A stretch of 64,000 nucleotides of DNA, taken from positions 32,187 to 96,186 of the IMG/VR virus record IMGVR_UViG_3300044655_001100; one strand, 5' to 3'. Numbering within the stretch: the first letter of the stretch is position 1; each line of letters opens with the position of its first letter. Under the pieces are notes generated by a model. It was not told where the DNA came from. It made no database searches and was given only the letters and a program-made list of their open reading frames with translations. A program made the translations under genes and the position numbers. This DNA is from a virus. This document shows, in pieces, positions 19,310 to 55,175 of this stretch.

Positions 19310-19631
19310 AATCGTTAACTACATTCGTACAGTGGCTCCAGACTGCATGGTATTTGCCATCCCAAACGGCTCCCAAAGAACCGCCACAGGGCGCCCAGCT
19401 AATGCGGTTGTGGGCTTTACTGCAGGCGCACCGGATCTGGTGGTAGTTATTCCAGGCGGAAGGGTTCTGTGGCTAGAGGTTAAAGCTGACAAGGGACGTG
19501 TAAGCGATGCCCAGCTTGCCTTTCATTTACAACTGCAAGCAAGAGGCCATGACGTTGCGGTAGTTAGATCAATTGATGAAGTAAGAAATGCCTTTCGTGT
19601 TCTTGATATTAAAACAAGGGAAATCCTATGA
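19266..19631 (+). CDS. VRR-NUC nuclease
   Basis: E..VQ..I, FAIPNG, GAPDL, WLEVK...GR.S..Q. Confidence 0.9.
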   Translation: MAGIRIQHEARVQREIVNYIRTVAPDCMVFAIPNGSQRTATGRPANAVVGFTAGAPDLVVVIPGGRVLWLEVKADKGRVSDAQLAFHLQLQARGHDVAVVRSIDEVRNAFRVLDIKTREIL

Positions 19632-20155
19632 GTGTTAAAACAATTACCTGGACGGAAGAAATGGTCTCTTTGTTAAAAGAGAATGCGTCTCAAGGTCTTT
19701 CTGCTTCCGAAATAGCAGCAATTTTAAAAAATCAATTTCATTTGCCTTTCACCAGAAATGCCGTAATTGGCAAGGCTCACCGAATTAAAGTCAAAGTTGG
19801 GCGGCACAAATTAATTGTTACAAAACCGGCGCCGAAGCCTGTACCGAAACCAGCACCTAAAGTTGAAACGGTTGTTGAGGCTAAGGCTCCCAAGAAACCA
19901 GTAAATAAAATTAAATTCATTGTTCCTAAGTCAACAGTTATGCACGAATTTAAAAACCCAAAAGCACTGGGCATCGAATTGCTTTTTTTGAAAGAAGGCC
20001 AATGCCGGTATCCGCTAGGCGATGTTCAAAAGAACAATCTTAGGTTCTGCGCTGCACCAGTAGATTATGGAAGAAGCCAGTCTTACTGCGCTGATTGCTA
20101 TTCTATTGTTTACTGCGCACCAAACTTTCATAAAAAAAGGGCAGCTACCGCTTAG
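19628..20155 (+). CDS. gcrA: GcrA cell-cycle regulator homologue
   Basis: WTEE....L......GLSASEIA......TRNAVIGKAHR; CRYPLGD......FC......YC. Confidence 0.92.
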   Translation: MSVKTITWTEEMVSLLKENASQGLSASEIAAILKNQFHLPFTRNAVIGKAHRIKVKVGRHKLIVTKPAPKPVPKPAPKVETVVEAKAPKKPVNKIKFIVPKSTVMHEFKNPKALGIELLFLKEGQCRYPLGDVQKNNLRFCAAPVDYGRSQSYCADCYSIVYCAPNFHKKRAATA

Positions 20156-22004: not shown

Positions 22005-22360
22005 CCCCTCACGTAGCAGAGCCTTTTGAGGCCCATAGTAGCAGCGGCAGAACCGTGGCGAATGGGATCAGGTGAGGGAAGCGTCGTAGTATCGGACGTT
22101 AAAACGATGCCGCACGAAGAGACTGAAAAACTACGTCAACGACGTATATTGGCAAGAGGTATACGCTCGTCACCGACAGAGAGATAGCTGCGGTTATGGT
22201 TTGGTAAATGCTGTCCACCAGACCGTTGTTCTTAGATGAGCAACAACCCGCATCCTTGCAGCGTTATGGATGGGACTCAACTCAACCGATTAAAACGCCT
22301 CTACCCCCTTACTAGGGGGGATAGGTGCGTCTGAACAGGATCTAATCTAACCGATTAAAG
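22005..22360 (+). ncRNA. Candidate structured non-coding RNA or replication origin
   Basis: No ORF of 60 aa or more across most of it; about 9 helices, several with G-U pairs on the + strand. Confidence 0.5.
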
Positions 22361-41930: not shown

Positions 41931-44300
41931 ATGGACGATCCTCGTTTTATCCGACAGCCAGAAATAGAATCCCCTGAGAAGCCCAAGGGAGAGGTTGTCG
42001 ATTTAGGCGACGGAAACGATATTGTTAAACTTAAGCCAGATGCTTTGGTAATTGATCTGCCAGATGGCAAAGTCACGATTAATTTTGGCGGTTTGGCAGA
42101 TTTGCCCCCAGAAGGCGCCAACGACCACGACGCTAACCTAGCTATTTATTTGGATGAAGGTACGCTGGGCGGCATTACCGACGAGTTGCTTCGTTTAATA
42201 ACTGACGATACGACACGCCAAGAACAAAGACTGCAAGACGTTGTTAAGGGAATTGATCTTTTAGGAATTAAACTTGAAGAGCCAAAATCTGAGCCGAATG
42301 AAGAAGGCATCAGCGTAATTAAGCATCCATTATTATTGGAGGCAGTATTAAGGTTTCAAGCAAACGCAAGAGGTGAATTGCTTTCTGCTGATGGACCAGT
42401 AAAAGTTAAAAACGAAGGCGATGGGACGCAGGAATTAGATTTAGATGCTCAGCAACTTGAAAGCGATTTTAATCACTATCTTACTTCAGGCGCTCCTGAA
42501 TACTACCCTGATTTTGACCGAATGCTTTTTTCGCTTGGTCATGGTGGTGAGGCGTACAAAAAGGTGTATTGGCATCCACTTAAGCGCCGTCCAGTATCTG
42601 AGACAATAGACCGCAAGGATATTATTTTATCCGATGGCGCAGTGAGTTTAGAATCCTGCGCACGTATTACGCATCGCTGCAGAATGCGCCCTTCAGTTGT
42701 CAAGCAAATGCAGCTTGCTGGAGCATGGAGAGACGTATCTCTAACAACTGGTTTGCTTATGCCAGATCTAAATGTTGTAGATCGTAAGCTAGAAGAGATT
42801 GCTGGCATACAGCCAAAGTTAAACTTAACATCAGAAGACACTGATCGTGAGATCTATGAGTGTTACTGTGAGTTAGACCTTAAAGGTTATGAACACGAAG
42901 AAGACGGAGAACAGACTGGTTTGGCAATTCCCTATCGGGTGACGATAGACAAAGACAGCCGTCAGGTTCTGGAAATTCGCAGATGGTGGGAAGAGGGAGA
43001 TCCGTCATATGTGCGAAAAGAAGTCTTTGTTGAATATGTATTTGTTCCAGCCTTTCCTGGCGTTAACCTTGGTCTGCTTCATATTTTGGGAAATGCTAGT
43101 CGTGCTCTCACGGCTGCTTGGCGAATTGCTCTTGATAATGGGATGCTGGCTAATTTTCCTGGTGGAATCATGGCTCGGTCCACAGGTAAGCAACAGACAA
43201 CCAATATCAGAGTTGGCCCTGGCCAAGTGGCGCCGATGGATGTTGATGGTGTTCCACTTAATCAAGCCTTTATGCCGCTTCCGTACAGAGACGTAACGGG
43301 TGGCTTCATGCAGATCATCCAGAACGTGGATCAGGCTGCACGACAATTAGGCGGTACCGCTGAGACTGCAGTCGGTGAGGGGCGTAATGATGCCCCTGTC
43401 GGAACGACGATTGCTCTTATTGAACAGTCTCAGAAAGTATTAAACGCTGTTCATAAGAGGATGCACTGCGCACAACAAAAAGAATTTGCGCTGTTAAAAG
43501 AATTATTCCGGCGAGATCCAGAAGCGCTTTGGAGAAATAATAAAAATCCAAGCTTTGGTAAGGATGTTCAGCGTCTTATGAGCGCCTTGGAGAATAATGA
43601 TATTGTTCCAAAAGCTGATCCTAATACGGCTAGCCATACAATGAGGGTTCAAAAGGCCATAGCTGTTTATACGCTTGCCCAGCAGAACCCATCTGCCTTT
43701 GACCAGAAAGCCGTTTATAACAAGATATTTAGTATGATTGGCATTGACGACGCACAAAATCTATTCAGCAAGGCACCTCCTGGTCCTCCTCCTGTTGATG
43801 AGACGAAGCGTCTTCAAGCTCAAGCTGAGATGGTCTCCGCTCAAGCTAAAATACTGGATGCTTCTGTTAGAGCCCAGACAGCGCAGGCTGAGAGCGGCGT
43901 TAAGATGGCTGGCATCCAAACACAGAATATGGACTCTCTTAACAAGCACAAGGCTAATAAGGCTAAAGCCACGACGGCTATGGTCGAAGCAGCCGGCAAG
44001 CTTAAACTTGAACAGTTGCGCCTAAAGCAGAGCGAACTAGTTCATCACGATAAAATAAAGAAGGACAGTTTATTTAAAGGCTTGGATCTACAAGCCGCTC
44101 AAAAGAATAAACAGTCTGATATGCAGCAAAATAATATGGATATCATGCAGCAGCGTGAGAAAGACGCAATGCAAGCGGCCAAGGAACAAAACCAAGCAGC
44201 TGCGCAACGATTACATGAGGTTAGCTTAGAAAATCAACGGGCTAAAATTGCTCGTGAGAATGATTTTCTATCGCCTCTAGGTGGCGAACCTACTGAATAA
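41931..44300 (+). CDS. Portal protein
   Basis: After terL; HPLL.EAV..FQA, G..YKKVY, APVGTT.ALIE; P22-like coiled-coil tail. Confidence 0.9.
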   Translation: MDDPRFIRQPEIESPEKPKGEVVDLGDGNDIVKLKPDALVIDLPDGKVTINFGGLADLPPEGANDHDANLAIYLDEGTLGGITDELLRLITDDTTRQEQRLQDVVKGIDLLGIKLEEPKSEPNEEGISVIKHPLLLEAVLRFQANARGELLSADGPVKVKNEGDGTQELDLDAQQLESDFNHYLTSGAPEYYPDFDRMLFSLGHGGEAYKKVYWHPLKRRPVSETIDRKDIILSDGAVSLESCARITHRCRMRPSVVKQMQLAGAWRDVSLTTGLLMPDLNVVDRKLEEIAGIQPKLNLTSEDTDREIYECYCELDLKGYEHEEDGEQTGLAIPYRVTIDKDSRQVLEIRRWWEEGDPSYVRKEVFVEYVFVPAFPGVNLGLLHILGNASRALTAAWRIALDNGMLANFPGGIMARSTGKQQTTNIRVGPGQVAPMDVDGVPLNQAFMPLPYRDVTGGFMQIIQNVDQAARQLGGTAETAVGEGRNDAPVGTTIALIEQSQKVLNAVHKRMHCAQQKEFALLKELFRRDPEALWRNNKNPSFGKDVQRLMSALENNDIVPKADPNTASHTMRVQKAIAVYTLAQQNPSAFDQKAVYNKIFSMIGIDDAQNLFSKAPPGPPPVDETKRLQAQAEMVSAQAKILDASVRAQTAQAESGVKMAGIQTQNMDSLNKHKANKAKATTAMVEAAGKLKLEQLRLKQSELVHHDKIKKDSLFKGLDLQAAQKNKQSDMQQNNMDIMQQREKDAMQAAKEQNQAAAQRLHEVSLENQRAKIARENDFLSPLGGEPTE

Positions 44301-44331: not shown

Positions 44332-47300
44332 ATGGACGAAAATATTAAAGCAGCTCTTCGCATAGCCAGGCTTCATCGTGCCTTTGGTGGAGATGCTTAC
44401 GCAGCAAATAACATTGCTTCTGGCATGGCAGATGGCGGATCTGTAAATCGTAACAACTATCAAATGGGTGGTGTACCCATGCCTTCAGCATCAAATCCCA
44501 TGGGGGTGATGCAAGGCCAGACGATGAATAATCAGCCTGGCAATCCCATGAACAGCTTTGGCCAGCAAACACAAAATGGAATTAACGGAGATCCGATTAG
44601 AGATATGGGCTATACGGCTCCTCCGCCATTTGCGACATTAGATAATAATTTACCCCCTCCTCAGCCTGTTCAAGCGCCTGTTCCGAGTTCGTATAATCCG
44701 CTGATGTCTAATACTCCGCCTATGCCAATGGCTGATGGCGGTGAGGTTAAAGATGCTTTGAGATTAGCAAAAAGGACTAATGATAGATTACCAATGCGCC
44801 CTTATGGGCCAAGATATAATCCAGAAACAAATGAATTAAATTCAAAAGATTTAAAGGACATTGGTTATTATGGGCCAATCCGTGACCGTGAAGGCGGTGT
44901 AGCCACAGAATATAGCGGCAATAAAGGTAATTTTTCCTACCCGACTATTCATAAAGGCATGAGTGACGCAGACTTAGCTGCGACAATGATGCATGAAACA
45001 TTGAATAAGCCAAAATATGAAGGCGAAGATATTATTAGTGAAAGATTAAATAAGGCTCAGACAAAGATTCCATTCCCAGAAGATGTAGATCAGAGAGCTT
45101 ATGAAGCTGCACAGAGCAGAGTAGCTGAAGGGCATTCACCTTATTATGAGCCTAGTAAAGATGAATATCCTGCATGGTCTCCAGAACAGCACTGGGATGA
45201 ACCAGCTATTATGCCAAGGGCTGATGGCGGTGTTGCTGACGCTCTTGAACAAACACATGGCAATCATGCTATTCCATTACATGAAGCAATAGCGCGACAT
45301 GGTTATGCAACGGATGGTTCTGTAGAAGAAAAACAAGAAGACAACACTTCTGTTGACAACACTTCTGTTGCGCAACAGGAAGATGAATCCCGTGAAAAAT
45401 TCTTACATAAAGAATTAGAAGGATCTGCTCCGCAATATAATCCTTCTTACGACAAAGCTATTAAAGCAGCGTACCAATACACGCCTCCTGGCGCCGCAAT
45501 GGATGCCGCTGGTATGCTTGGAAATCCAAGTATTAAGGAAAATCTTCAGTCTGGGCGCTATGTTCCGGCTGCTATGCAGGCTGCTGCTGTTGCTATGCCT
45601 CTTGGGTTTGCTGGCCGTAAAGCTGCAACTGCTGGTTTGAAAGCTGGGGCTCAGCAACTTTATAAGCTTGGTAAGCCGGATGTTGTTGGTATGCCAGGAT
45701 ATACAGCTTACAAAACAGTAGAAGATTGGGCTCCGCAAGTTATGGGGCATCAAACTTGGAACGCCGCTAAGAATTATGGGGCTCAAGCTGCAGAAGCTGC
45801 TAGACAGGCTTTAGGATTTGCTAGGGGTGGTTCAACCCCACAGACCCCACGTGATCAGAAATCACAGACCCCGGTATCATCATCTGGCTTTCAAACAACG
45901 CCAAATAAAGAACATCAGATTTCTCCAGAAGAATATAAAAAGGGCAATACTCAAAAATATGAGTATGTTATGGCCCATGGTGGCAGTATTCATCCCGACG
46001 TAAAGAACGCATTGAGTTTAATTGATAGAGAAAACATGGCTGGTGGTGGTGTTAGGAAAGTAAATCCAAATATGGATTACTCTAATTCCATGCGCACCTA
46101 TTATGATTTGGTTAATGCTGGGCATTCTCCTGAAACCGCAGCTGGTATGGTTGGCAACTTTATGGTTGAATCGCCAAGCAAACAGGGTAATCAATTATCA
46201 TTTGGCGAGACGGAAAGAGGCGTAAAACCTGGTACAGGTGGCGCAGGTCTAGCACAATGGACAGGCCCACGCCGTCAAGAATTCCAGAATTTTGCTAAAT
46301 CACAAGGCATGGATTGGCGTACACCGCAAGCCAATACAGCGTTTTTCAGCCATGAGGCGAAAACAAATCCTTGGATTGGCAAGCAATTAGAAAAAGTAGA
46401 AGCTCAACCAACGGCTGGCGCCGCCGCTGAGACGGCTGCTAAGCAATATTTTAGACCAAGAGCTGATGCTTTAAGGAATACGTTGGGCGCTAGAGTTGGT
46501 TATGCTCAGAATGTAGCTGACATTGCTGGCCGTGGTAATCCATTTGGTGGCCAGGCTTTAGCGCAACAGTCAGAACGGGCAAATATGCTTGCTCAAAAAG
46601 AGCAAGAAGCCAAGCTTATGCAGGCTAATTTGCCAAAGGCAGAAGATCAGGCTGCTCCAGCTAAGGCTACCCCAGCGGCATCTGCTGCGCTTACAACAAG
46701 TAGCGTTGATAACAGTGCTTCTAATCAGCCTGCTATGAATTTTGCTCCTCCTCAACAACAAGCAGCCCCAGTAGCTGCGCCAAATGAGGAAAGCACACAA
46801 AACTTTTTAAAATCTCAAATGAATGCGCCAGAGCCACAGGAGCAAGCGCAGCCTCAACCTGCACAAGCAGAAGCTCCTAAAATGGAAGTTCCAGAGCCAG
46901 CTGCTGCGCAAGTAGAAGCGCCAGAGCCGATGATGCCAGAGCCTCCAGAAAATAATATGGATATGGCCGATAATTCTGCACCAGAAATGCCAAACTTTGA
47001 TATGGCTGCTGATGGTGGGGCTATTAAGCCAAAATATCATTCTGATGAGAGTGAAACAGCTAAAGAATTATTAAATCATGCTCTTAAATTAGCTTCTGGT
47101 GGTGGTGCTTGGACACGCAAGGAAGGCAAGAATCCAAATGGTGGGTTAAATGCCAAGGGCCGTGCATCATTAAAAGCGCAGGGGCATGACATTAAACCAC
47201 CTGCACCACACCCAAAAACAGAAAAAGACGCAGGAAGACGTAAATCATTTTGCGCAAGAATGTCCGGTATGCCTGGGCCTATGAAAGATGACAACGGAAA

Positions 47301-47508
47301 ACCCACCCGTAAGGCATTATCTTTAAGAGCTTGGAACTGTCATGCTGATGGCGGTGAAGTTTGGGATAAACCAAGACCAAAAGATTTAGGAAAACCGAAA
47401 CACTTATCGGATAGCCAAAAATCAAAAGCCAAAGCAGCTGCTAAAGCCGCTGGTCGTCCTTATCCAAATTTAATTGACAACATGAGAGCGGCTAAAAAGA
47501 ATAAGTAA
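44332..47508 (+). CDS. Modular virion-internal polyprotein-like ORF with phage tail lysozyme-like domain (~46090-46530) and DUF6321-like module (47107-47340)
   Basis: AAGMVGNFMVES...GLAQWTGPRR; AWTRKEGKNP.GGLN.KGRAS...RRKSFCARM...WNC; about 12 xAxGG-type motifs. Confidence 0.75.
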   Translation: MDENIKAALRIARLHRAFGGDAYAANNIASGMADGGSVNRNNYQMGGVPMPSASNPMGVMQGQTMNNQPGNPMNSFGQQTQNGINGDPIRDMGYTAPPPFATLDNNLPPPQPVQAPVPSSYNPLMSNTPPMPMADGGEVKDALRLAKRTNDRLPMRPYGPRYNPETNELNSKDLKDIGYYGPIRDREGGVATEYSGNKGNFSYPTIHKGMSDADLAATMMHETLNKPKYEGEDIISERLNKAQTKIPFPEDVDQRAYEAAQSRVAEGHSPYYEPSKDEYPAWSPEQHWDEPAIMPRADGGVADALEQTHGNHAIPLHEAIARHGYATDGSVEEKQEDNTSVDNTSVAQQEDESREKFLHKELEGSAPQYNPSYDKAIKAAYQYTPPGAAMDAAGMLGNPSIKENLQSGRYVPAAMQAAAVAMPLGFAGRKAATAGLKAGAQQLYKLGKPDVVGMPGYTAYKTVEDWAPQVMGHQTWNAAKNYGAQAAEAARQALGFARGGSTPQTPRDQKSQTPVSSSGFQTTPNKEHQISPEEYKKGNTQKYEYVMAHGGSIHPDVKNALSLIDRENMAGGGVRKVNPNMDYSNSMRTYYDLVNAGHSPETAAGMVGNFMVESPSKQGNQLSFGETERGVKPGTGGAGLAQWTGPRRQEFQNFAKSQGMDWRTPQANTAFFSHEAKTNPWIGKQLEKVEAQPTAGAAAETAAKQYFRPRADALRNTLGARVGYAQNVADIAGRGNPFGGQALAQQSERANMLAQKEQEAKLMQANLPKAEDQAAPAKATPAASAALTTSSVDNSASNQPAMNFAPPQQQAAPVAAPNEESTQNFLKSQMNAPEPQEQAQPQPAQAEAPKMEVPEPAAAQVEAPEPMMPEPPENNMDMADNSAPEMPNFDMAADGGAIKPKYHSDESETAKELLNHALKLASGGGAWTRKEGKNPNGGLNAKGRASLKAQGHDIKPPAPHPKTEKDAGRRKSFCARMSGMPGPMKDDNGKPTRKALSLRAWNCHADGGEVWDKPRPKDLGKPKHLSDSQKSKAKAAAKAAGRPYPNLIDNMRAAKKNK

Positions 47509-47651
47509 ATGGATTTTAAGGAATCTAAGACTTATTTATTAATATTTATAGTATTTGTAATTATAGGAACGTTATTATCTTTTAATATTGAGGATCAAAT
47601 TGTATATACAGACGATTATATTAAGATGAGAGACGAATAACGGTAGGATAA

Positions 47652-47858
47652 ATGCTCCCATCTGACGAAACCACACGCAAAAAATGGTTTTCGTTGGTGG
47701 TTAAGTATTGGTTATTGCACCATTCAGCTGATGCAATCATCATGTATGCGGTTTGTCACCGTATGCCGATGGGAAAAAAGGATGTTTTAGAGATTATTCG
47801 CAAATATGTTGATAGCCAGACGGAAAATAATACCTATGGCAAGAAAAAAACGACTTGA
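47652..47858 (+). CDS. Hypothetical protein
   Basis: AGGA RBS. Confidence 0.45.
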   Translation: MLPSDETTRKKWFSLVVKYWLLHHSADAIIMYAVCHRMPMGKKDVLEIIRKYVDSQTENNTYGKKKTT

Positions 47859-48032
47859 TTTTTCTAAATATTGATAATCTTACGGTTTCGGAGTAAAATA
47901 AATTGCATTTTTGTCAATTTTTGACGCACTGCCTTGCGCTAAGGCGGTTCATCGCTACTAATTGGCCATTAGTGGTATAAAAAATCCTATAAAAAGCTTT
48001 GTAGGTATCTGAAAATCCTAGGAATTAACGTC

Positions 48033-49376
48033 ATGGCGCATGAATATGCAAAAGAAGCTAAGGCTTCTCACGATAAAAAGTTAAAAAGCTACGGGGCGAA
48101 GACATCTTCGAGCGTAGATGGATCTAATGAAGACGGCGATGCTACGAATTTCGCTGGATTCCGTGCTTTAAACACAAATAAACAGGCTGGTATGGCTCCT
48201 TTGAACAAAAAAGGCTCCATGTCAGAGGAAACCAACCCACGCATCATGCGCAAGAAGGGTGGCCGTGTCGCTGGCGCTGATAGTTTGAAGCGTTTGGACA
48301 AGGCTCCTCGTAAAGCTAAGGCAGCTGGTGGTGGTTTGCAGGGTACAGGTCAACGTGTTGGCCCAATTCCTAGTGCTGACACACAGCAAATGGATTTTGA
48401 CCCGACGACACGGGTAAAACCAGGCGAAATGACACCTGGCACAATGCGCAAGAAGGGTGGTCGTGTAGCCAAAGCTTATGGGGGTGGTTTTGAAGATCTC
48501 CTTAGCGGAATTGGCAATGCGCTTTTTGGCGAAGAAGAAGCGGCACCAGCACGTAGGGAAGCTGCTGGTTCTTCTCGTGGTATGGGTCGTCATTCTGCAC
48601 CTCATCCAGTCGTTCGTCGCCGCATTACGGAAGTTGAGCATCCGGTAACTGCTGAAGGTGCAGATATTCCAATGCCAACTCGTCGCCCAGCTGAATTGTC
48701 GGCTCCTGCTGCTGCTCCTGTATCAGATGCAGATGCGACAGCTAACTTTCTTCAGTCGCAGGGTATTGGCGCTCGTCCTGCACCAGCTCCGTCGGCTGAT
48801 TCATCAACGGCAAACCCCTTCTATGCAGAACATCTTTATCGTAAGAATGGTGGCCGTTTAGGCCGTGCATCTGGTGGTAAGTCAGAGCATCCTGATGAAG
48901 CTCAAGATAAAGCCCTCATCCGCAAGATGGTCAAAAAAGAAGACCTAAAGATGAAGGATGGTGGCCGTGCTCATCGTGCTAAGGGTGGCAAAACAACAGT
49001 AAATATACTTATGGGACAACCAAACCAAGGTCAGCCACAAGGACCTAATCCAATGGCTCTTGCAGCAATGCTTGGAGCTATGGATAAAGATGGCGCAGGC
49101 GGTCCTCCTCCAATGGCTCCACCGCCGCCGCAGGGAATGCCTCCACAGGGAGCGCCTATGATGGCTGGCCCACCACCACAGATGCCACCACAGATGCCAC
49201 CACAGGCTGGCCCAGGTGGCCCTCCTATGCCCAGAGCAAGAGGTGGTAGAACATTTGCTGACATCAAAGTAAGCAAGCCTAAAATTAAAGATGGATATCC
49301 TGCGCTTACTGGTGGTTCTGGTGGCGGTAAGGGCCGTCGTGAGAAGATTCTTGCCTATGGCGACGAGCAAAAATAA
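48033..49376 (+). CDS. Basic low-complexity head-associated protein with about 9 GG motifs
   Basis: RKKGGRV x2, RASGG, MKDGG, RAKGG, RARGG; Pro/Met-rich tract. Confidence 0.75.
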   Translation: MAHEYAKEAKASHDKKLKSYGAKTSSSVDGSNEDGDATNFAGFRALNTNKQAGMAPLNKKGSMSEETNPRIMRKKGGRVAGADSLKRLDKAPRKAKAAGGGLQGTGQRVGPIPSADTQQMDFDPTTRVKPGEMTPGTMRKKGGRVAKAYGGGFEDLLSGIGNALFGEEEAAPARREAAGSSRGMGRHSAPHPVVRRRITEVEHPVTAEGADIPMPTRRPAELSAPAAAPVSDADATANFLQSQGIGARPAPAPSADSSTANPFYAEHLYRKNGGRLGRASGGKSEHPDEAQDKALIRKMVKKEDLKMKDGGRAHRAKGGKTTVNILMGQPNQGQPQGPNPMALAAMLGAMDKDGAGGPPPMAPPPPQGMPPQGAPMMAGPPPQMPPQMPPQAGPGGPPMPRARGGRTFADIKVSKPKIKDGYPALTGGSGGGKGRREKILAYGDEQK

Positions 49377-49446
49377 CTACTAAAATTGGTCGGGAACGGC
49401 GGGTTGTTGTGAGCATCCCGCCGCCCCTAAACAAAACCAAGGGAGC

Positions 49447-50121
49447 TTGGCTATGTCTAAATGCGGAATATATCGAATTGTAAATACGAGCAACGGTAAA
49501 TTTTATATTGGTTCTACTGTGGATTTTGAGAAACGCAAGAAAGAGCATTTTCGTCAATTAAAAAATAATGCTCACCACAGTAAAATTTTTCAAAACGCTT
49601 ATAATAAAGAAAATAAAAAAGATTGTTTTATTTTTGAAATTATATTGATTTGTTGTGAAAATATGAATTTATTTTACGAGCAAAAAATTATAAATATTTT
49701 TTTACCTCAATATAATGTTGCTAAAAATTCAACAGCGCCATTAAAGGGTGTTAAAGGAGCTATGCACCCAATGTATGGCCACAATCATACTGAAGATACA
49801 AAAGAAAAAATGAGAAAAAGCGCTAGGCGTGGCAAAGACAATCATATGTTTGGAATGTTTAAAGAAAAACACCCAAAGTTTGGTATTCGCTATACAAACC
49901 CAAAACAATCTGGAGATAAAAACCCAATGTTTGGAATGGGTTATGTTATATCTGGAGAAAAAAATGGAAGGGTAAAATTAAATAAAGAAAAAGTAATAGA
50001 AATTATTAGTTCCGATCAGTCATATTCTAAGTTGTCAAAAGTGTATAATGTTAGTAAGTCTCAAATAGCAAAAATAAAACAGGGAATAGCCTGGAAAAAC
50101 TTACAGAAACAGGCAGTGTAA
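49447..50121 (+). CDS. GIY-YIG homing endonuclease with NUMOD3-like repeats
   Basis: GIYRI.N..NGKFYIGS......R..EH; H.MYG..HTE.TK.KM. Confidence 0.92.
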   Translation: MAMSKCGIYRIVNTSNGKFYIGSTVDFEKRKKEHFRQLKNNAHHSKIFQNAYNKENKKDCFIFEIILICCENMNLFYEQKIINIFLPQYNVAKNSTAPLKGVKGAMHPMYGHNHTEDTKEKMRKSARRGKDNHMFGMFKEKHPKFGIRYTNPKQSGDKNPMFGMGYVISGEKNGRVKLNKEKVIEIISSDQSYSKLSKVYNVSKSQIAKIKQGIAWKNLQKQAV

Positions 50122-50330
50122 TGAATTTAGACTTAAGGCTTTTTTTAGAAATTGAAAAAATATTAACTGAATTACAAGAGCAATTAGCCGCTGAGTTAAT
50201 CCTTGGTAAGGCGCAAAGTTTCGACGACTACCGTTTTCGCGTGGGTCGTATGAAAGGCGTATCAGATGCTCTGAACGCTGCACGAGAGGCCAATAAGCGC
50301 ATTATTGGCGTTGATGAAGAAAGAAGATAG
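50121..50330 (+). CDS. Small head-module protein
   Basis: L..G....FD.Y...VG...G. Confidence 0.65.
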   Translation: MNLDLRLFLEIEKILTELQEQLAAELILGKAQSFDDYRFRVGRMKGVSDALNAAREANKRIIGVDEERR

Positions 50331-50332
50331 CT

Positions 50333-50752
50333 ATGCCAGCTATGGAAATGAATCATGATGATGTTGATCCAAAACAAGCGATTTTGGACAAGGTAGGAAG
50401 TCTGGATGAGGTAGAGGTATTTGGTAGCGATGTGCTTGTCGCTCTTTACATTCCTCCAACAAAAACTCGCTCTGGAATTATTCTTTCGGATACCACAAGG
50501 GACGAGTCAAAGTGGCAAGGTAAGGTAGCTTTAGTCCTAAAGCTTGGGAATACAGCTTACCTTGATGACGAGGGAAATAAATTCCGCGACATCGAACCTG
50601 GCCAATGGGTTGTTTTGAGGCCGTCAGATGGCTGGCCTTTTCAATTAAATACAATGAAGTCCAGAATATCAAAAGATAATGTTGTCGATTGCCGAGTGGT
50701 AACAGACATAAACATTCGTGCCAGGGTGAGCCATCCTGATCTCGTATATTAA
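50333..50752 (+). CDS. GroES-like co-chaperonin
   Basis: VLV......KTRSGIILSD.......G.V..V.KLG..AY......G.WV. Confidence 0.85.
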   Translation: MPAMEMNHDDVDPKQAILDKVGSLDEVEVFGSDVLVALYIPPTKTRSGIILSDTTRDESKWQGKVALVLKLGNTAYLDDEGNKFRDIEPGQWVVLRPSDGWPFQLNTMKSRISKDNVVDCRVVTDINIRARVSHPDLVY

Positions 50753-50764
50753 TGGAGCGCTTCC

Positions 50765-51814
50765 ATGTCTGATGAAGAATTTAAAGAAAAACCCGTAGAA
50801 GTAATTTTACCAGAAGAAACAATTGCGGAAGTAGAATTAGATTCTAGCGAACCAAAAGTTTCTGAAACTAAGGCTCATGTTCAAGAAGTTAGAACAGAGG
50901 AAGAGTCAGTTGTAGAAGCTGAGCGTCCAAAGAAGACTGTTGTTGATGAGCGTGAAAAGGCTCTTAAGGAGCTCAGAGCGCAATATGAACAGCAAAAGAG
51001 AATAGCTGAAGCAGAGCGTGAGGCCAGAAAACAGGCTGAACTGTATGCTAGAGAGCAAGCGCAGCAAGTTTATAATGCGCAAAATCAAGTTCAGGATGGT
51101 AATCTCAAGATTATTCTGAATGCGATTGATGCAACTGAACAAGCCGCTTCAAATGCTGAAAGAGATTATGCGACGGCTATGGCTGCTGGCGATTATGCTA
51201 TGGCGGCTAAAGCTCAGCGTATTATGGCTCAAGCTGAAAGCCATTTGCTACAATTACAGAATGGCAAACAGCGTCTTGAGGAAACATTACAGCAGCCTAC
51301 TGAGGGTTCTGTTCAAGAGCCGGAAATTCCTAGCTTTGAACCAAGAATTCAGCATGATCCTGTTGAAATGTATGCTTCTAAGTTAGCGCCTAAAAGCGCC
51401 CAATGGCTGCGTGAGCATCCAGATGCGGTGAATAAGATTGGCAAGCTAACGAGAGCTCATGCGGATGCTGTTGAGGATGGTATTGCACCAGAATCGGCAG
51501 ATTATTTCCGTTATATTGAAAATCGTCTTGGATATACGACTGAGGTGGATGATTCGGATGATTATGTAGAGGAACAGCCAGTTCGACAAGTTAAACAGGC
51601 TCAATCGCTGAAAAAGCCAGCGGTTTCTGTACCTGTTACATCGTCGGCTAGCGCTGCTACACCACGTAATTCAAATGCAAATTCTATGGTTTTGTCGGCA
51701 GAAGAAGTTGAGTTTGCTCTTTTGGCAGAGCCTCAATTGTCCCGTGAAAAGGCGATTGAATCTTATGCCAGAAACAAGGCAAGCTTGATTAAGGCTGGAA
51801 AACTTAGCGCTTAA
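50765..51814 (+). CDS. Capsid scaffolding protein
   Basis: Acidic N-terminus, long coiled coil, short C-terminal helical domain; upstream of the capsid gene. Confidence 0.7.
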   Translation: MSDEEFKEKPVEVILPEETIAEVELDSSEPKVSETKAHVQEVRTEEESVVEAERPKKTVVDEREKALKELRAQYEQQKRIAEAEREARKQAELYAREQAQQVYNAQNQVQDGNLKIILNAIDATEQAASNAERDYATAMAAGDYAMAAKAQRIMAQAESHLLQLQNGKQRLEETLQQPTEGSVQEPEIPSFEPRIQHDPVEMYASKLAPKSAQWLREHPDAVNKIGKLTRAHADAVEDGIAPESADYFRYIENRLGYTTEVDDSDDYVEEQPVRQVKQAQSLKKPAVSVPVTSSASAATPRNSNANSMVLSAEEVEFALLAEPQLSREKAIESYARNKASLIKAGKLSA

Positions 51815-51825
51815 GGAATCAAACC

Positions 51826-52365
51826 ATGACGACAGATAACCATATTGATGGCCGCACTCGTGAGGGAAAAGCTTTGAAAGCAACTTCAGAAGATGGCTTA
51901 AAAGTAGCAACTAACGATTCAAAGGCTAGAGCGGAAGCTCGTATCAGAGAGATTAGGGGTAATCCTGATCTGGCGAATGGAACGGAGCGTGATAAATACT
52001 GGGCACCTCCTCCACCAGACGGCTGGGATTACCAGTGGAAACTAAAATCAGTTCTTAACCAGGACGATATTGATCGGATTCGTCAGAATGAAATGAACGG
52101 CTGGGAGCCTGTGCCTCTAACACGTCATCCAGAATTAATGCCGAAGGGCTGGAAGGGCGACACTATTGAGGTTGGGGGTCTTGTTCTTATGGAGCGCCCA
52201 ATGATGTTCACGCAAGAGGCTCGTGAAGAAGAGCGTCGTTTGGCTAAGGAAGCAGTTTATACCAAAGAAAGTCAAATGAGAGAGGGCCGTGCTGGCGATC
52301 TGGGGCCGCGAAATGTCAATCGCTTTAGTAAAAGCCATTCACGGATAGATGTCCCATCAGAATAA
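51826..52365 (+). CDS. Head-module protein of unknown function
   Basis: PPDGW.YQW, GWEPV, I..GGLVLMERP. Confidence 0.7.
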   Translation: MTTDNHIDGRTREGKALKATSEDGLKVATNDSKARAEARIREIRGNPDLANGTERDKYWAPPPPDGWDYQWKLKSVLNQDDIDRIRQNEMNGWEPVPLTRHPELMPKGWKGDTIEVGGLVLMERPMMFTQEAREEERRLAKEAVYTKESQMREGRAGDLGPRNVNRFSKSHSRIDVPSE

Positions 52366-52374
52366 ATGAAAGTT

Positions 52375-52402
52375 AGGGGGGGGCTAAACCCTCCCCTTTT
52401 TA
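52375..52402 (+). terminator. Intrinsic terminator
   Basis: AGGGGGGGG-CTAAA-CCCTCCCCT then T run. Confidence 0.75.
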
Positions 52403-52427
52403 TTTACATATTGCCTAATTCCATAAG

Positions 52428-52456
52428 TTGACAAAGTGTCTATAGACTCGTAAAAT
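52428..52456 (+). promoter_or_regulatory. Sigma70 promoter of the capsid operon
   Basis: TTGACA-17-TAAAAT. Confidence 0.8.
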
Positions 52457-52720
52457 GTAATCTGCCAATTTGTATAAATTTATTGGCTTTAAGCCGTTAG
52501 TACATTTTCGTATTGCGGTAGCTGAAATTACCTAGATAACTCGCGCTGAGAAGTCAGGTTTTTGAGGCAATCGCTTTCAGTTTGGCGGAACCCTGCCAAA
52601 CATCGGAACTGGGTTCCGAAATATATCAGCAACCCGCGCTGGATTGCTCCAAAATCTCCCGTCTGTTTCTGCAACACGCAGTTGTGGCTAACGACAATCA
52701 CTCATAATAGGAGGATTGCC

Positions 52721-53350
52721 GTGGCGAATAATTTTGCCCCCTTCGGCTTCCGTCCGGTTTCTACGTCGAACGGCCCAATGAACTGGCGCATTTCGACACG
52801 CCGGATTGACTCTGCAAATGCTACACCTATCTTCAAAGGCGATGCCGTTACCCCGGTTTTACCTGCGAACGGTTACATCACACAGGCATCAAACACCTCA
52901 ACCTTAACTGCGCCAATCGGCGGCGTTTTTTGGGGTTGCCAGTATCTTTCAACATCGCAGAAGCGAGTTGTTTGGAATCAGTATTGGCCAGGTGGTGACG
53001 CCACAGGCGACGTTATCGCATACGTAATTGATGATCCGAATTCTCGGTTTGTTGTTCAGTCCTCTGGTGCTGGCTTCAATATTTCTGGGGATGTTTATAA
53101 TTTCGGTTCATCGCCAGTTGGTCAGTATTGCAATCTGAACGTCGGTGTGGGTAACACGCTCTCTCAGCAGTCGGGCATGTTTGTTGATACAATTGCCACG
53201 ACAAATACCTTCCCGTTCATCATCACCAACATGGTCCTTGATCCCCCAGGATCAAACGGCACAGACCCTACTGCAATCTTTAACTGGGTTGAAGTTGGAT
53301 TCAACAACGAGTGGCTTCGCACGAATAGTGCTGTCACCGGCATCGCTTAA
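52721..53350 (+). CDS. Capsid decoration/cement-like protein
   Basis: AGGAGG RBS, GTG start; N..APFGFRP, IF.GD.V, GVF.GC.Y, V.DDP...F.VQ. Confidence 0.7.
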   Translation: MANNFAPFGFRPVSTSNGPMNWRISTRRIDSANATPIFKGDAVTPVLPANGYITQASNTSTLTAPIGGVFWGCQYLSTSQKRVVWNQYWPGGDATGDVIAYVIDDPNSRFVVQSSGAGFNISGDVYNFGSSPVGQYCNLNVGVGNTLSQQSGMFVDTIATTNTFPFIITNMVLDPPGSNGTDPTAIFNWVEVGFNNEWLRTNSAVTGIA

Positions 53351-53365
53351 TAGGAGCATTAGCAA

Positions 53366-54280
53366 ATGGCAGTTAATCTTTCAGCCATCCGCGACCTGCT
53401 TCTGCCAGGTCTCCGTGGCGTTGAGGGCAAATACCCTCAGATCCCATCACAGTGGGACAAAGTGTTCGAAAAAGCCAAATCAAACATGGCTTTGGAGCGC
53501 ACAGCTGAAATGCGTTACCTCGGTCTTGCAGCAATCAAGACTGAAGGCGGCGCTGTTTCTTTCGATAACAATGCGAGTGAGCGTTACGTCTACAACCAAG
53601 AGCACTATGAAATTGGTTTGGGTTACGCGATCACACGTAAAGCAATCGACGACAACCTCTACAAGACACAGTTTACACCTACGAACCTCGGCCTGATTGA
53701 ATCTTTCGGTCAGACAAAGGAAATCTACGGTGCAAACCTGTTGAACACGGCGCAGACATATAATTCTGCAGTCGGTGGTGACGGTCAGCCTCTCTGTTCG
53801 CTGAGCCATCCTATCGATGGCGGTGTTATTGCTAACACGCCTATTGTTCAGGTTGACCTCAATGAGTCATCATTGCTGAACGCGATGGTTTCGATCCGAC
53901 AGAACTTCAAAGACATCGCTGGTCTGAAGATGTTCGCTCGTGGTCGCAAGCTGATCGTTCCGCCGTCACTTGAGCCTGTTGCTATCCGTCTTACAAAGAC
54001 TGAACTGCGCCCAGGCACAGCAGACAACGACGTCAACGCGATCCATACGACCGCTGGGGGCCTTCCAGAAGGCTACATGGTCATGGACTTCTTGACCTCG
54101 AACTATGCTTGGTTCCTGCTCACCAACATCAAAGGCTTGGTGTACATGGAGAGAGTGCCCTACGAGATGGACCTCCAGGTCGATTTCACTACGGACAACT
54201 TGCTGGTGAAGGGATATGAAAGATATTCTTTCGGATATTATAATTGGCGTTCAATCTTTGGATCGTTTCCAACGCATTAA
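53366..54280 (+). CDS. Major capsid protein (Mu gpT-like, HK97 fold)
   Basis: K.EG..V.FD, LG.AITR..I.DNLY, GGDG..L.S..HP, KLIVPP.L, AWF, ERYSFG...WR..FG. Confidence 0.92.
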   Translation: MAVNLSAIRDLLLPGLRGVEGKYPQIPSQWDKVFEKAKSNMALERTAEMRYLGLAAIKTEGGAVSFDNNASERYVYNQEHYEIGLGYAITRKAIDDNLYKTQFTPTNLGLIESFGQTKEIYGANLLNTAQTYNSAVGGDGQPLCSLSHPIDGGVIANTPIVQVDLNESSLLNAMVSIRQNFKDIAGLKMFARGRKLIVPPSLEPVAIRLTKTELRPGTADNDVNAIHTTAGGLPEGYMVMDFLTSNYAWFLLTNIKGLVYMERVPYEMDLQVDFTTDNLLVKGYERYSFGYYNWRSIFGSFPTH

Positions 54281-54321
54281 CAACAACTTACGGCAATAAT
54301 ATCTGCCGTAATTTACACTAA

Positions 54322-54354
54322 AGGGTAGGGAAAGATTATCAGTCATTCCCTACC
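54322..54354 (+). terminator. Hairpin after the capsid gene
   Basis: GGGTAGGGA...TCCCTACCC; no clear T tail. Confidence 0.45.
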
Positions 54355-54437
54355 CGGTTAGCAAAGGAAAACCTACCTTATTGACAGATACGACAAAAGA
54401 TAATAAATATCTTTAGTCAATCTGACAGGAGGTAGAA

Positions 54438-55175
54438 ATGAAAGTTTCGGAGCTAACGTTTGAGCAATTGAGTGAAGCAGTCGCGTATGATGCAGAAGCC
54501 GGGGTTTTTACTTGGAAGGTATCCCCATCCAAGCAAATTAAAGCCGGAACAGTTATTGGGGGCTGGAAAACAGTTCGTGTAACTACGGGTGAAATAAAGA
54601 AATATCTTTATATTACCTATCTGAATCGTTCGATGATTGCGTCACGAGTAGCGTGGTTGTTGCATTACGGTGTATGGCCCCAAACTGCGGTGCAATTTGT
54701 TGATGGTGACACGACAAATCTTCGGATAAGCAATCTGAAATTGGCGATGTTTCAAACCAACAAAGTGTCCCAGGATGGTCGGACAACTCGGAAAATGTCC
54801 TCTGATGCGCAGCGCCATTATGGCTTAAAGCGTTATTATGGGATGTCTTTGAACGAGTATGCAGAGAAGTATGCTTCCCAAGATGGGAAATGTGCAATCT
54901 GCAACAAGCCAGAAACCACAATGCTTCACGGTAAAATTAAACCTTTATCGGTTGACCACTGCCATAAAACGGAACGTGTAAGAGAGTTGCTTTGTCATTC
55001 GTGCAATCATCTTCTCGGACACGCTTTTGATGACGCAAAAACACTTCTGGCGGCAGCTGCATACATCGAAAAGCACTCTGCCAAAAGTGAAGATCCGGGC
55101 TCCCTAGCCCCATCGACTGGCCCGGCAGACACTGCACGGACGATGGAGCGAAACCTCGTGCAGGAGGAAAGGTAG
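54438..55175 (+). CDS. Homing endonuclease (degenerate HNH plus endonuclease VII domain)
   Basis: YGMS..EY.....QDGKCAIC...LSVDHCH.T..VR.LLC..CN..LG. Confidence 0.88.
   Translation: MKVSELTFEQLSEAVAYDAEAGVFTWKVSPSKQIKAGTVIGGWKTVRVTTGEIKKYLYITYLNRSMIASRVAWLLHYGVWPQTAVQFVDGDTTNLRISNLKLAMFQTNKVSQDGRTTRKMSSDAQRHYGLKRYYGMSLNEYAEKYASQDGKCAICNKPETTMLHGKIKPLSVDHCHKTERVRELLCHSCNHLLGHAFDDAKTLLAAAAYIEKHSAKSEDPGSLAPSTGPADTARTMERNLVQEER
55095..55163 (+). ncRNA. Pseudoknotted RNA element, possibly the Mu-gpT downstream element class
   Basis: Two stems whose loops are complementary (CCATCG/CGATGG). Confidence 0.5.

Follow-up and report, generated by a model that had tools for sequence, protein, structure and literature searches.

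Do small RNA hairpins that share a tip but not a stem act as operators for the head genes of a double-stranded DNA (dsDNA) phage? This question is raised by IMG/VR virus record IMGVR_UViG_3300044655_001100 (96,186 base pairs (bp); estimated completeness 79%), which derives from an uncultured phage and of which we analysed the final 64 kilobases (kb), plus strand, called the window throughout. Within its head-gene module lie six hairpins (hp1 to hp6) that a sequence-only reading had described as carrying one GCGC(U/A) pentaloop on unrelated stems, and from which it had proposed a regulon of RNA operators spanning several head genes. All six hairpins are present, hp1 with one G.U pair and hp6 with one C/A mismatch (Table 1). 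On the basis of comparisons with related phages, we conclude, with a probability of roughly 55%, that hairpins of this kind are cis-acting RNA operators on late head-gene messages, the tips of which are docked on by a putative sequence-specific reader.

The module begins with the portal gene, which is followed by genes for proteins of 1058 and 447 amino acids (aa), a GIY-YIG homing endonuclease, a 69-aa protein, a GroES-like protein and a 349-aa protein taken here as the scaffold. Next come the gene for a 179-aa protein, a gap of 355 nucleotides (nt), the gene for a 209-aa protein and that for the major capsid protein. The same gene order is found in the cultured pelagiphage HTVC023P and in the GenBank metagenomic phage MW202675.1, and a megablast search of the region against GenBank phages returned no match.

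Invariant tips on covarying stems in the capsid-operon leader

The capsid protein has 244 relatives in IMG/VR that are 84% to 99% identical to it. Eighty of their loci were fetched, and 878 kb were scanned in total. The 118 nt upstream of the 209-aa gene were aligned across 45 distinct leaders from related IMG/VR contigs (alignment A1), and the full leader was aligned across 13 sequences. Throughout, R denotes a purine and Y a pyrimidine, and site counts refer to loci with an R-CGC-Y hairpin no more than 200 nt upstream of the given gene.

Two hairpins are universal in alignment A1. The sequence-only reading had named conservation in relatives as a test, and hp6 is present in all 45 leaders on covarying stems, with double compensatory changes in seven of nine pairs. 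Its tip is C-R-CGC-Y-G, in which C49, C51, G52, C53 and G55 are invariant (45 of 45), the first loop base is G in 41 leaders and A in 4, and the fifth is U in 27 and C in 18. The other, hp6b, had been overlooked because its loop in this genome is ACGCA. Across the alignment its CGC is also invariant (45 of 45), position 5 is a pyrimidine in 44 of 45 leaders, with the window as the exception, and double changes are seen in four of five pairs.

Together, these two hairpins define the constant element. R-CGC-Y is present in 89 of the 90 capsid-leader hairpins, and in 89 of the 90 loops the first and fifth bases are G-U, G-C or A-U, never A-C. RNAalifold pairs these two bases so that a CGC triloop remains, and the tips of the capsid leader are always set on a C-G pair. 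The shared loop of the sequence-only reading is therefore fixed as a tip on hp1, hp3, hp5 and hp6, but GCGC(U/A) is not the true constant; this is R-CGC-Y, in which an R:Y pair probably closes a three-base CGC loop. The stems of hp6 and hp6b are paired in 93.1% of alignment cells, compared with 28% to 56% when the partners are slid. There are 162 double-change cells, a value reached by none of 500 shuffles, and 11 of 14 pairs are compensatory. Beyond the two hairpins, all-against-all column pairing on alignment A1 was too noisy to be read.

This arrangement extends to every suitable relative. At least one R-CGC-Y hairpin precedes the 209-aa gene in all 73 related loci with enough sequence before it, and these comprise 76 distinct hairpin sequences. 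In the cultured phage HTVC023P the gap before the homologous gene is just 53 nt, and nothing alike was found there among hairpins with stems of at least 6 bp, a search in which the locus was not scanned for the R-CGC-Y tip itself.

The two universal hairpins are embedded in a leader that extends about 260 nt from the sigma-70-like promoter predicted for the capsid operon. This promoter is the best match in the region, and relatives have promoter-like boxes in the corresponding position. Within the leader, hp5 comes first among the R-CGC-Y hairpins; closer relatives carry its counterparts at the same place, with stems of 4 to 8 bp around C-GCGCY-G. In the 13-sequence consensus, where 27 of 36 pairs show compensatory changes, hp5 is followed by additional helices and then by hp6 and hp6b; a last helix takes up the Shine-Dalgarno sequence (SD) of the 209-aa gene together with part of its GUG start. 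When the leaders are folded singly to their minimum free energy, this SD is base-paired in 44 of the 45.

Several features indicate that these elements are read as RNA. In the 878 kb, GCGCT is the commonest pentaloop on stems of at least 4 bp (83 cases, 14 times expectation) and GCGCC is second. When only distinct sequences are counted, there are 46 GCGCT and 21 GCGCC hairpins, and the next best loop has 22. Twenty of the 67 distinct GCGCY hairpins reach 5 bp only through G.U pairs read on the plus strand. In the clade of the window, C-RCGCY-G hairpins number 179 on the coding (plus) strand versus 15 on the minus strand. Covariation in at least 45 distinct relatives, along with G.U-dependent stems, argues for a selected RNA structure that is read for its tip. 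No T-run follows any R-CGC-Y hairpin, and the only plus-strand terminator found in these intergenic regions is the one that closes the upstream operon; the hairpins are thus not terminators.

Table 1. Features of the head-gene module in window coordinates. ORF, open reading frame.
Feature	Position	Strand	Energy (kcal/mol)	Description
Portal gene	41931-44300	+		First in head module
Sigma-70-like promoter before 447-aa gene	47871-47899	+		TTGATA, 17-nt spacer, TAAAAT; 10 of 12 matches; predicted
hp1	47928-47948	+	-10.8	8-bp stem, loop GCGCU; 93 nt before 447-aa gene start
hp2	50289-50309	+	-11.2	8-bp stem, loop GCGCA; in 3′ end of 69-aa ORF, 24 nt before GroES-like gene
hp3	50752-50766	+	-4.3	AUGGA-GCGCU-UCCAU; candidate translational operator; 5′ arm is scaffold SD, 3′ arm reaches AUG (50765)
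hp4	51803-51815	+	-0.7	CUUA-GCGCU-UAAG; rejected
Intrinsic terminator	52375-52397	+		9-bp G+C-rich stem, then T-run; closes upstream operon, after 179-aa gene
Sigma-70-like promoter of capsid operon	52428-52456	+		TTGACA, 17-nt spacer, TAAAAT; 11 of 12 matches
hp5	52540-52550	+	-3.7	CUC-GCGCU-GAG; first R-CGC-Y hairpin of leader, weak here
Leader helix	52580-52601	+		GUUUGG...CCAAAC; stem kept, loop variable
Leader helix	52603-52619	+		UCGGAAC...GUUCCGA; stem kept, loop variable
hp6	52628-52648	+	-6.5	Universal hairpin, tip C-G-CGC-U-G; covariation in alignment A1
hp6b	52669-52687	+		Second universal hairpin, 40 nt after hp6; loop ACGCA
SD-pairing helix	52691-52723	+		Anti-SD ACGACAAUCACUC with SD GGAGG (52710-52714) and part of GUG start (52721) of 209-aa gene
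Proposed regulated operon	52721-54280	+		209-aa gene (52721-53350) and capsid gene (53366-54280; PHROG and Pfam major head protein matches)

Sites at other head genes

The tip also recurs upstream of two further head genes. For the scaffold gene, an R-CGC-Y hairpin is found in 23 of 31 loci (8 distinct sequences). The counterparts of hp3 keep a constant order of SD, R-CGC-Y, anti-SD and AUG, with the hairpin always directly before the AUG, on stems that vary among GGA/UCC, GGG/CCC, AGGA/UCCU and UAGG/CCUA. Distant clades, in which hp3 is absent, show a plain ribosome-binding site. For the 447-aa gene, the hairpin is found in 18 of 26 loci on 13 distinct stems, located before the homologues at a distance of about 92 nt, about 36 nt or both; the predicted promoter would place hp1 about 20 nt into the transcript. 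Control counts are 0 of 77 loci for the capsid gene itself (0 distinct) and 2 of 37 for the 179-aa gene (2 distinct).

The remaining two hairpins do not carry this signal. As an operator, hp4 was rejected: 123 of 200 shuffles fold as well, and its counterpart is missing in 35 of 37 relatives. Its GCGCT is formed by the codons AGC GCT before a TAA, where they meet the SD of the next gene, and relatives use other Ser-Ala codons. The stem of hp2 (z-score -3.6) persists in every clade, through compensatory substitutions that change the encoded residues (N/Q, I/L). Its loop, however, varies among GCGCA, GCGCG, ACGCA, AGAAG, AATCA and GATGA. Because the loop is free, hp2 is a different conserved element and not a same-loop site; translational coupling and message stability are possible roles for it.

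Thus the proposal of one operator shared across the head module survives in part. An invariant loop on unrelated stems is borne out, on the coding strand, at head-gene leaders and ribosome-binding sites and in at least 45 distinct relatives, and the 447-aa gene, the scaffold gene and the capsid operon all have genuine sites. Membership shrinks to hp1, hp3, hp5 and hp6, with hp4 a chance occurrence and hp2 a separate element. The same-loop pattern seen in a single genome therefore mixes real sites with coincidences (two of the six lie outside the signal), and comparison alone separated them.

Other hairpins with related loops were noted. In 16 of 50 relatives (for example, L040, L044 and L058) an R-CGC-Y hairpin lies inside the 69-aa ORF, about 60 nt before the GroES-like start, as in cttcaag-ACGCT-cttgagg; the window has ACGCT at this spot and no stem. 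A seventh copy of the original pattern, CUCUA-GCGCU-UAGAG at genome position 18953, overlaps an SD and has a better alternative fold. It is one of three hairpins in a 90-nt gap of the tail-fibre region, upstream of a gene for a 62-aa protein (L084:2387-2476; genome 18886-18975); another of the three has a 7-nt loop containing ACGCA. Finally, relatives carry a recurrent palindrome, gcaaat-GCGC[A/C/T]-atttgc, 1470-1570 nt after the start of the capsid gene, and this also fits the pattern described by the sequence-only reading.

A sister clade carries a CGG tip

The capsid leader of MW202675.1 lacks R-CGC-Y, and its capsid protein has at least 600 relatives in IMG/VR. Leaders of this sister clade contain two tandem hairpins in which a one-base bulge comes after the tip C-Y-CGG-Y-G, and next in line is an anti-SD/SD helix. 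This tip is present in all 63 sister-clade leaders (70 distinct sequences), and both hairpins covary, with double changes in 11 of 13 pairs. The two classes share their geometry: loops are spaced by a median of 40 nt, and 40 to 42 nt separate the last of them from the start codon.

Enrichment of the two tips is reciprocal between the clades and specific to the coding strand. The clade of the window, rich in plus-strand C-RCGCY-G as given above, has C-YCGGY-G in 34 plus-strand and 23 minus-strand hairpins, whereas the sister clade has 168 and 21 of the latter and 25 and 64 of C-RCGCY-G. The tip difference looks like a switch of reader specificity; a CGG tip in the same geometry is what a reader of altered specificity predicts. 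In MW202675.1, a tRNA-Met (CAT) gene lies just upstream of the capsid-leader promoter (L085:6153-6229).

A model for control of head-gene messages

A fixed tip on free stems, the messenger strand, placement in leaders and at ribosome-binding sites, and the switch of class together have the anatomy of an RNA operator. In the model that we favour, the stems would need only to pair, and the tip would be what the reader, most likely a protein, docks on. At the scaffold gene, hp3 is a weak hairpin that contains the SD and the start of the AUG, and therefore a bound reader would clamp it shut over these bases and repress translation. In the capsid leader, two tips 40 nt apart, the last about 42 nt before the start codon, adjoin the helix that hides the SD and start codon; binding there may hold the leader closed, or otherwise set translation and stability. 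Output of the scaffold, the capsid operon and the 447-aa protein would in this way be tuned together, perhaps for the sake of balance among head proteins.

Known regulators offer partial precedents. Like the operators of the MS2 and PP7 coat proteins and of T4 gp32, gp43 and RegA, hp3 is a weak hairpin into which a phage gene's ribosome-binding site is folded, with the SD in its 5′ arm and the AU of AUG in its 3′ arm, both kept in relatives. By analogy, clamping by a protein and feedback repression of a structural gene would apply to hp3. In contrast to the RNA-phage operators, the sites described here belong to a dsDNA phage, occur several to a regulon, have a different loop and lack a bulged purine. 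Also relevant is phage P22, whose scaffolding protein is known from genetics to limit its own synthesis post-transcriptionally, and for which we know of no defined RNA target. The two cases share a scaffold gene in the head module, here with a candidate operator on its ribosome-binding site. Here, nothing links the scaffold to RNA binding, and many relatives keep the capsid-leader sites but lack the one at the scaffold gene.

Tandem hairpins with identical loops and fixed spacing beside an element that decides expression are also a feature of ANTAR-type and CsrA-type leaders, where a dimer reads the two loops and one site is close to the SD. However, ANTAR targets are hexaloops with A at position 1 and G at position 4, the second hairpin competing with a terminator, whereas the loops here have 3 to 5 nt (CGC) and no U-tract terminator follows. 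Furthermore, the GGA found in the loops of CsrA/RsmA leaders is absent from these loops, and occurs only in the SD arm of hp3. Neither an ANTAR nor a CsrA protein was found among the ORFs tested. R-CGC-Y likewise differs from the loops CAGUCACA, AAAGGGUUA, UCAGG and GGAG of apparent same-loop hairpin arrays noted before capsid genes in other phage families. An Rfam 15 cmscan of window positions 47000-54000, on both strands and with E-values up to 1, gave no match. A 2023 survey reported 8,495 unnamed candidate structured RNAs from IMG/VR, five of them upstream of a capsid family, and may include this leader (PMC10690425).

Weighing the operator model

Several results weigh against the model. 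A scan of the genome against shuffled sequence, which the sequence-only reading had called for, did not support it: the enrichment in the window is not significant after correction for the look-elsewhere effect. When every loop prefix may compete, some class other than GCGC comes out best, and even that class is equalled in 41 of 300 dinucleotide shuffles, which makes the signal not significant in this genome alone. By simple count, the plus strand has 254 GCGCW sites (W, A or T), five with a Watson-Crick stem of at least 4 bp and four with one of at least 5 bp, and none of the 216 such sites on the minus strand has such a stem. The direction of control, repression or activation, is deduced from the anatomy of the sites alone. 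The sister clade and the distant part of the window's own clade carry tips only in the capsid leader, which indicates that the wider regulon is lineage-specific. Searches for the reader also speak against it. A screen of 34 ORFs against Pfam or PHROGs gave no RNA-binding domain, and AlphaFold models of the 179-aa protein (predicted local distance difference test (pLDDT) score of 73) and the 69-aa protein (a two-helix hairpin, pLDDT 88) had no significant fold match. Last, FastTree trees of five module proteins imply a single change of loop class for the capsid protein and for the scaffold, and two changes for each of the remaining three; one or two changes per tree are too few to name a partner.

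Four other explanations were considered. The tips might serve a leader fold that works without any trans factor, by making tertiary or loop-loop contacts or by stabilizing a compact structure that governs the access of ribosomes and protects a long untranslated RNA. The roughly 260 nt of the leader do fold into several helices (z-score -3), their loop-to-loop spacing is fixed at about 40 nt, and both tip classes hold a self-complementary tetramer with a central CG (GCGC or CCGG), all as such a fold would have it. Nevertheless, we judge it unlikely, since the tip would act as a single copy in the 447-aa leader and on the ribosome-binding site of the scaffold gene, 11 of the 90 loops are ACGC and not self-complementary, loops of just 3 to 5 nt are sterically ill suited to a 4-bp kissing interaction, and no conserved single strand complementary to GCG was seen in the linker of the class with the CGC tip. 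Quite unlikely, too, is that the tips are cut by a host or phage endoribonuclease that processes polycistronic late transcripts and sets the half-lives of their segments. Phages offer precedents for RNA cutting, in the RNase III sites of T7 and in T4 RegB, which cuts inside SD sequences, and the sites here are intercistronic or in leaders, on the messenger strand, with both sequence and structure conserved. A cut in the hp3 loop, however, would part the SD from the AUG of a gene that is needed abundantly, three consecutive sites in one leader are hard to rationalize, and no nuclease candidate was found among the screened ORFs.

Antitermination of the nut or put type, in which the nascent RNA, alone or with a factor, modifies RNA polymerase to read through late-operon terminators, would account for the dual-hairpin arrangement and for the sigma-70-like promoters that stand shortly before hp1 and the capsid-leader hairpins; hairpins at 54288-54360, after the capsid gene, could act as the terminators. 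Lambda-type nut sites are similar in that boxB, which N proteins read, is a short hairpin with a fixed loop and variable stem in leaders just after promoters, and the distinct CGC and CGG classes of related phages recall the nut classes of lambda, P22 and phi21. Yet lambda-type boxB has a GNRA-like pentaloop (GAAAA, GAAGA or GACAA) that differs from R-CGC-Y, and no conserved boxA (like CGCUCUUA) is present, CGCTCTTA being found in relative L005 only and its position varying in alignment A2. Moreover, the operons are late head operons, hp3 covers a ribosome-binding site inside an operon, the screened ORFs yielded no small arginine-rich protein resembling N, and a leader that hides the SD points to translation rather than antitermination. 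We regard this explanation as decidedly unlikely. The least likely is a role at the DNA level, which is highly improbable. On this view the repeats would fold in the DNA itself, as single strands or cruciforms, and so present GCGC or CCGG, both classic methyltransferase sites, to a protein such as a C5-methyltransferase, a nickase or a hairpin-recognizing polymerase. Against this, GCGC is not invariant, given the ACGC loops noted above, the hairpin axis differs from the palindrome axis, G.U pairs contribute to the stems only when the coding strand is read, and the sites track ribosome-binding sites and start codons. In addition, the heptamer CRCGCYG is neither enriched (13 found versus 18.8 expected) nor avoided in the genome, which holds 391 copies of GCGC with no avoidance pattern.

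Candidates for the reader

The operator model calls for a reader, and the 34-ORF screen returned only DNA-binding or nuclease domains, plus a homologue of the cell-cycle regulator GcrA (window 19628-20155; Pfam E-value 1e-24), which points to an alphaproteobacterial host. Among 20 small, mostly basic ORFs of the window no RNA-binding domain was recognizable, in a screen confined to the window and so to all but 32 kb of the genome; the profiles of N proteins in particular are weak. PDB sequence searches with the 209-, 179- and 69-aa proteins were empty. A 355-nt structured RNA (window 22005-22359) was considered as an RNA partner and set aside, because no complementary GCG loop was seen in its fold.

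For the 209-aa protein, no Pfam or PDB match was obtained. Its nearest Protein Atlas clusters are annotated 'phage cement protein' (score 0.82-0.84), which is a lead only, and its identity does not follow loop class.

The module itself is a mosaic. The identity of the capsid protein among relatives is high, whereas that of its neighbours (50121-53350: the 69-aa, GroES-like, scaffold, 179-aa and 209-aa proteins) drops to 30% to 40%, a contrast that reflects unusually strong constraint on, or recent spread of, one gene. Two endonuclease genes, encoding the GIY-YIG homing endonuclease (49447-50121) and an HNH/endonuclease VII protein (54438-55175), also lie inside the module. Both are absent or different in many relatives and are mobile insertions beside the regulated genes.

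One tentative and rather improbable suggestion is that the reader is itself a head protein. Its subunits, while unassembled, would recognize the CGC tips (CGG in the sister clade) and thereby silence both the operon that encodes them and the scaffold gene. This suggestion was prompted by the conservation of the capsid protein amid drifting neighbours, and by the single class change that is confined to the capsid and scaffold trees.

Implications

To our knowledge, almost nothing is known about the post-transcriptional control of the head assembly genes of dsDNA phages, with the P22 scaffold as the long-standing exception. The signal described here is sharply defined, with a fixed tip of 3 to 5 nt, free stems, fixed spacing and a hidden ribosome-binding site alongside. 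It is present in all 73 and all 63 leaders of two very large clades of uncultured, apparently environmental phages, which differ only in tip sequence and so offer a natural pair of specificity classes. If a head protein were the reader, a large family of dsDNA phages would employ translational feedback in the manner of coat proteins, with a specificity that can switch between two classes.

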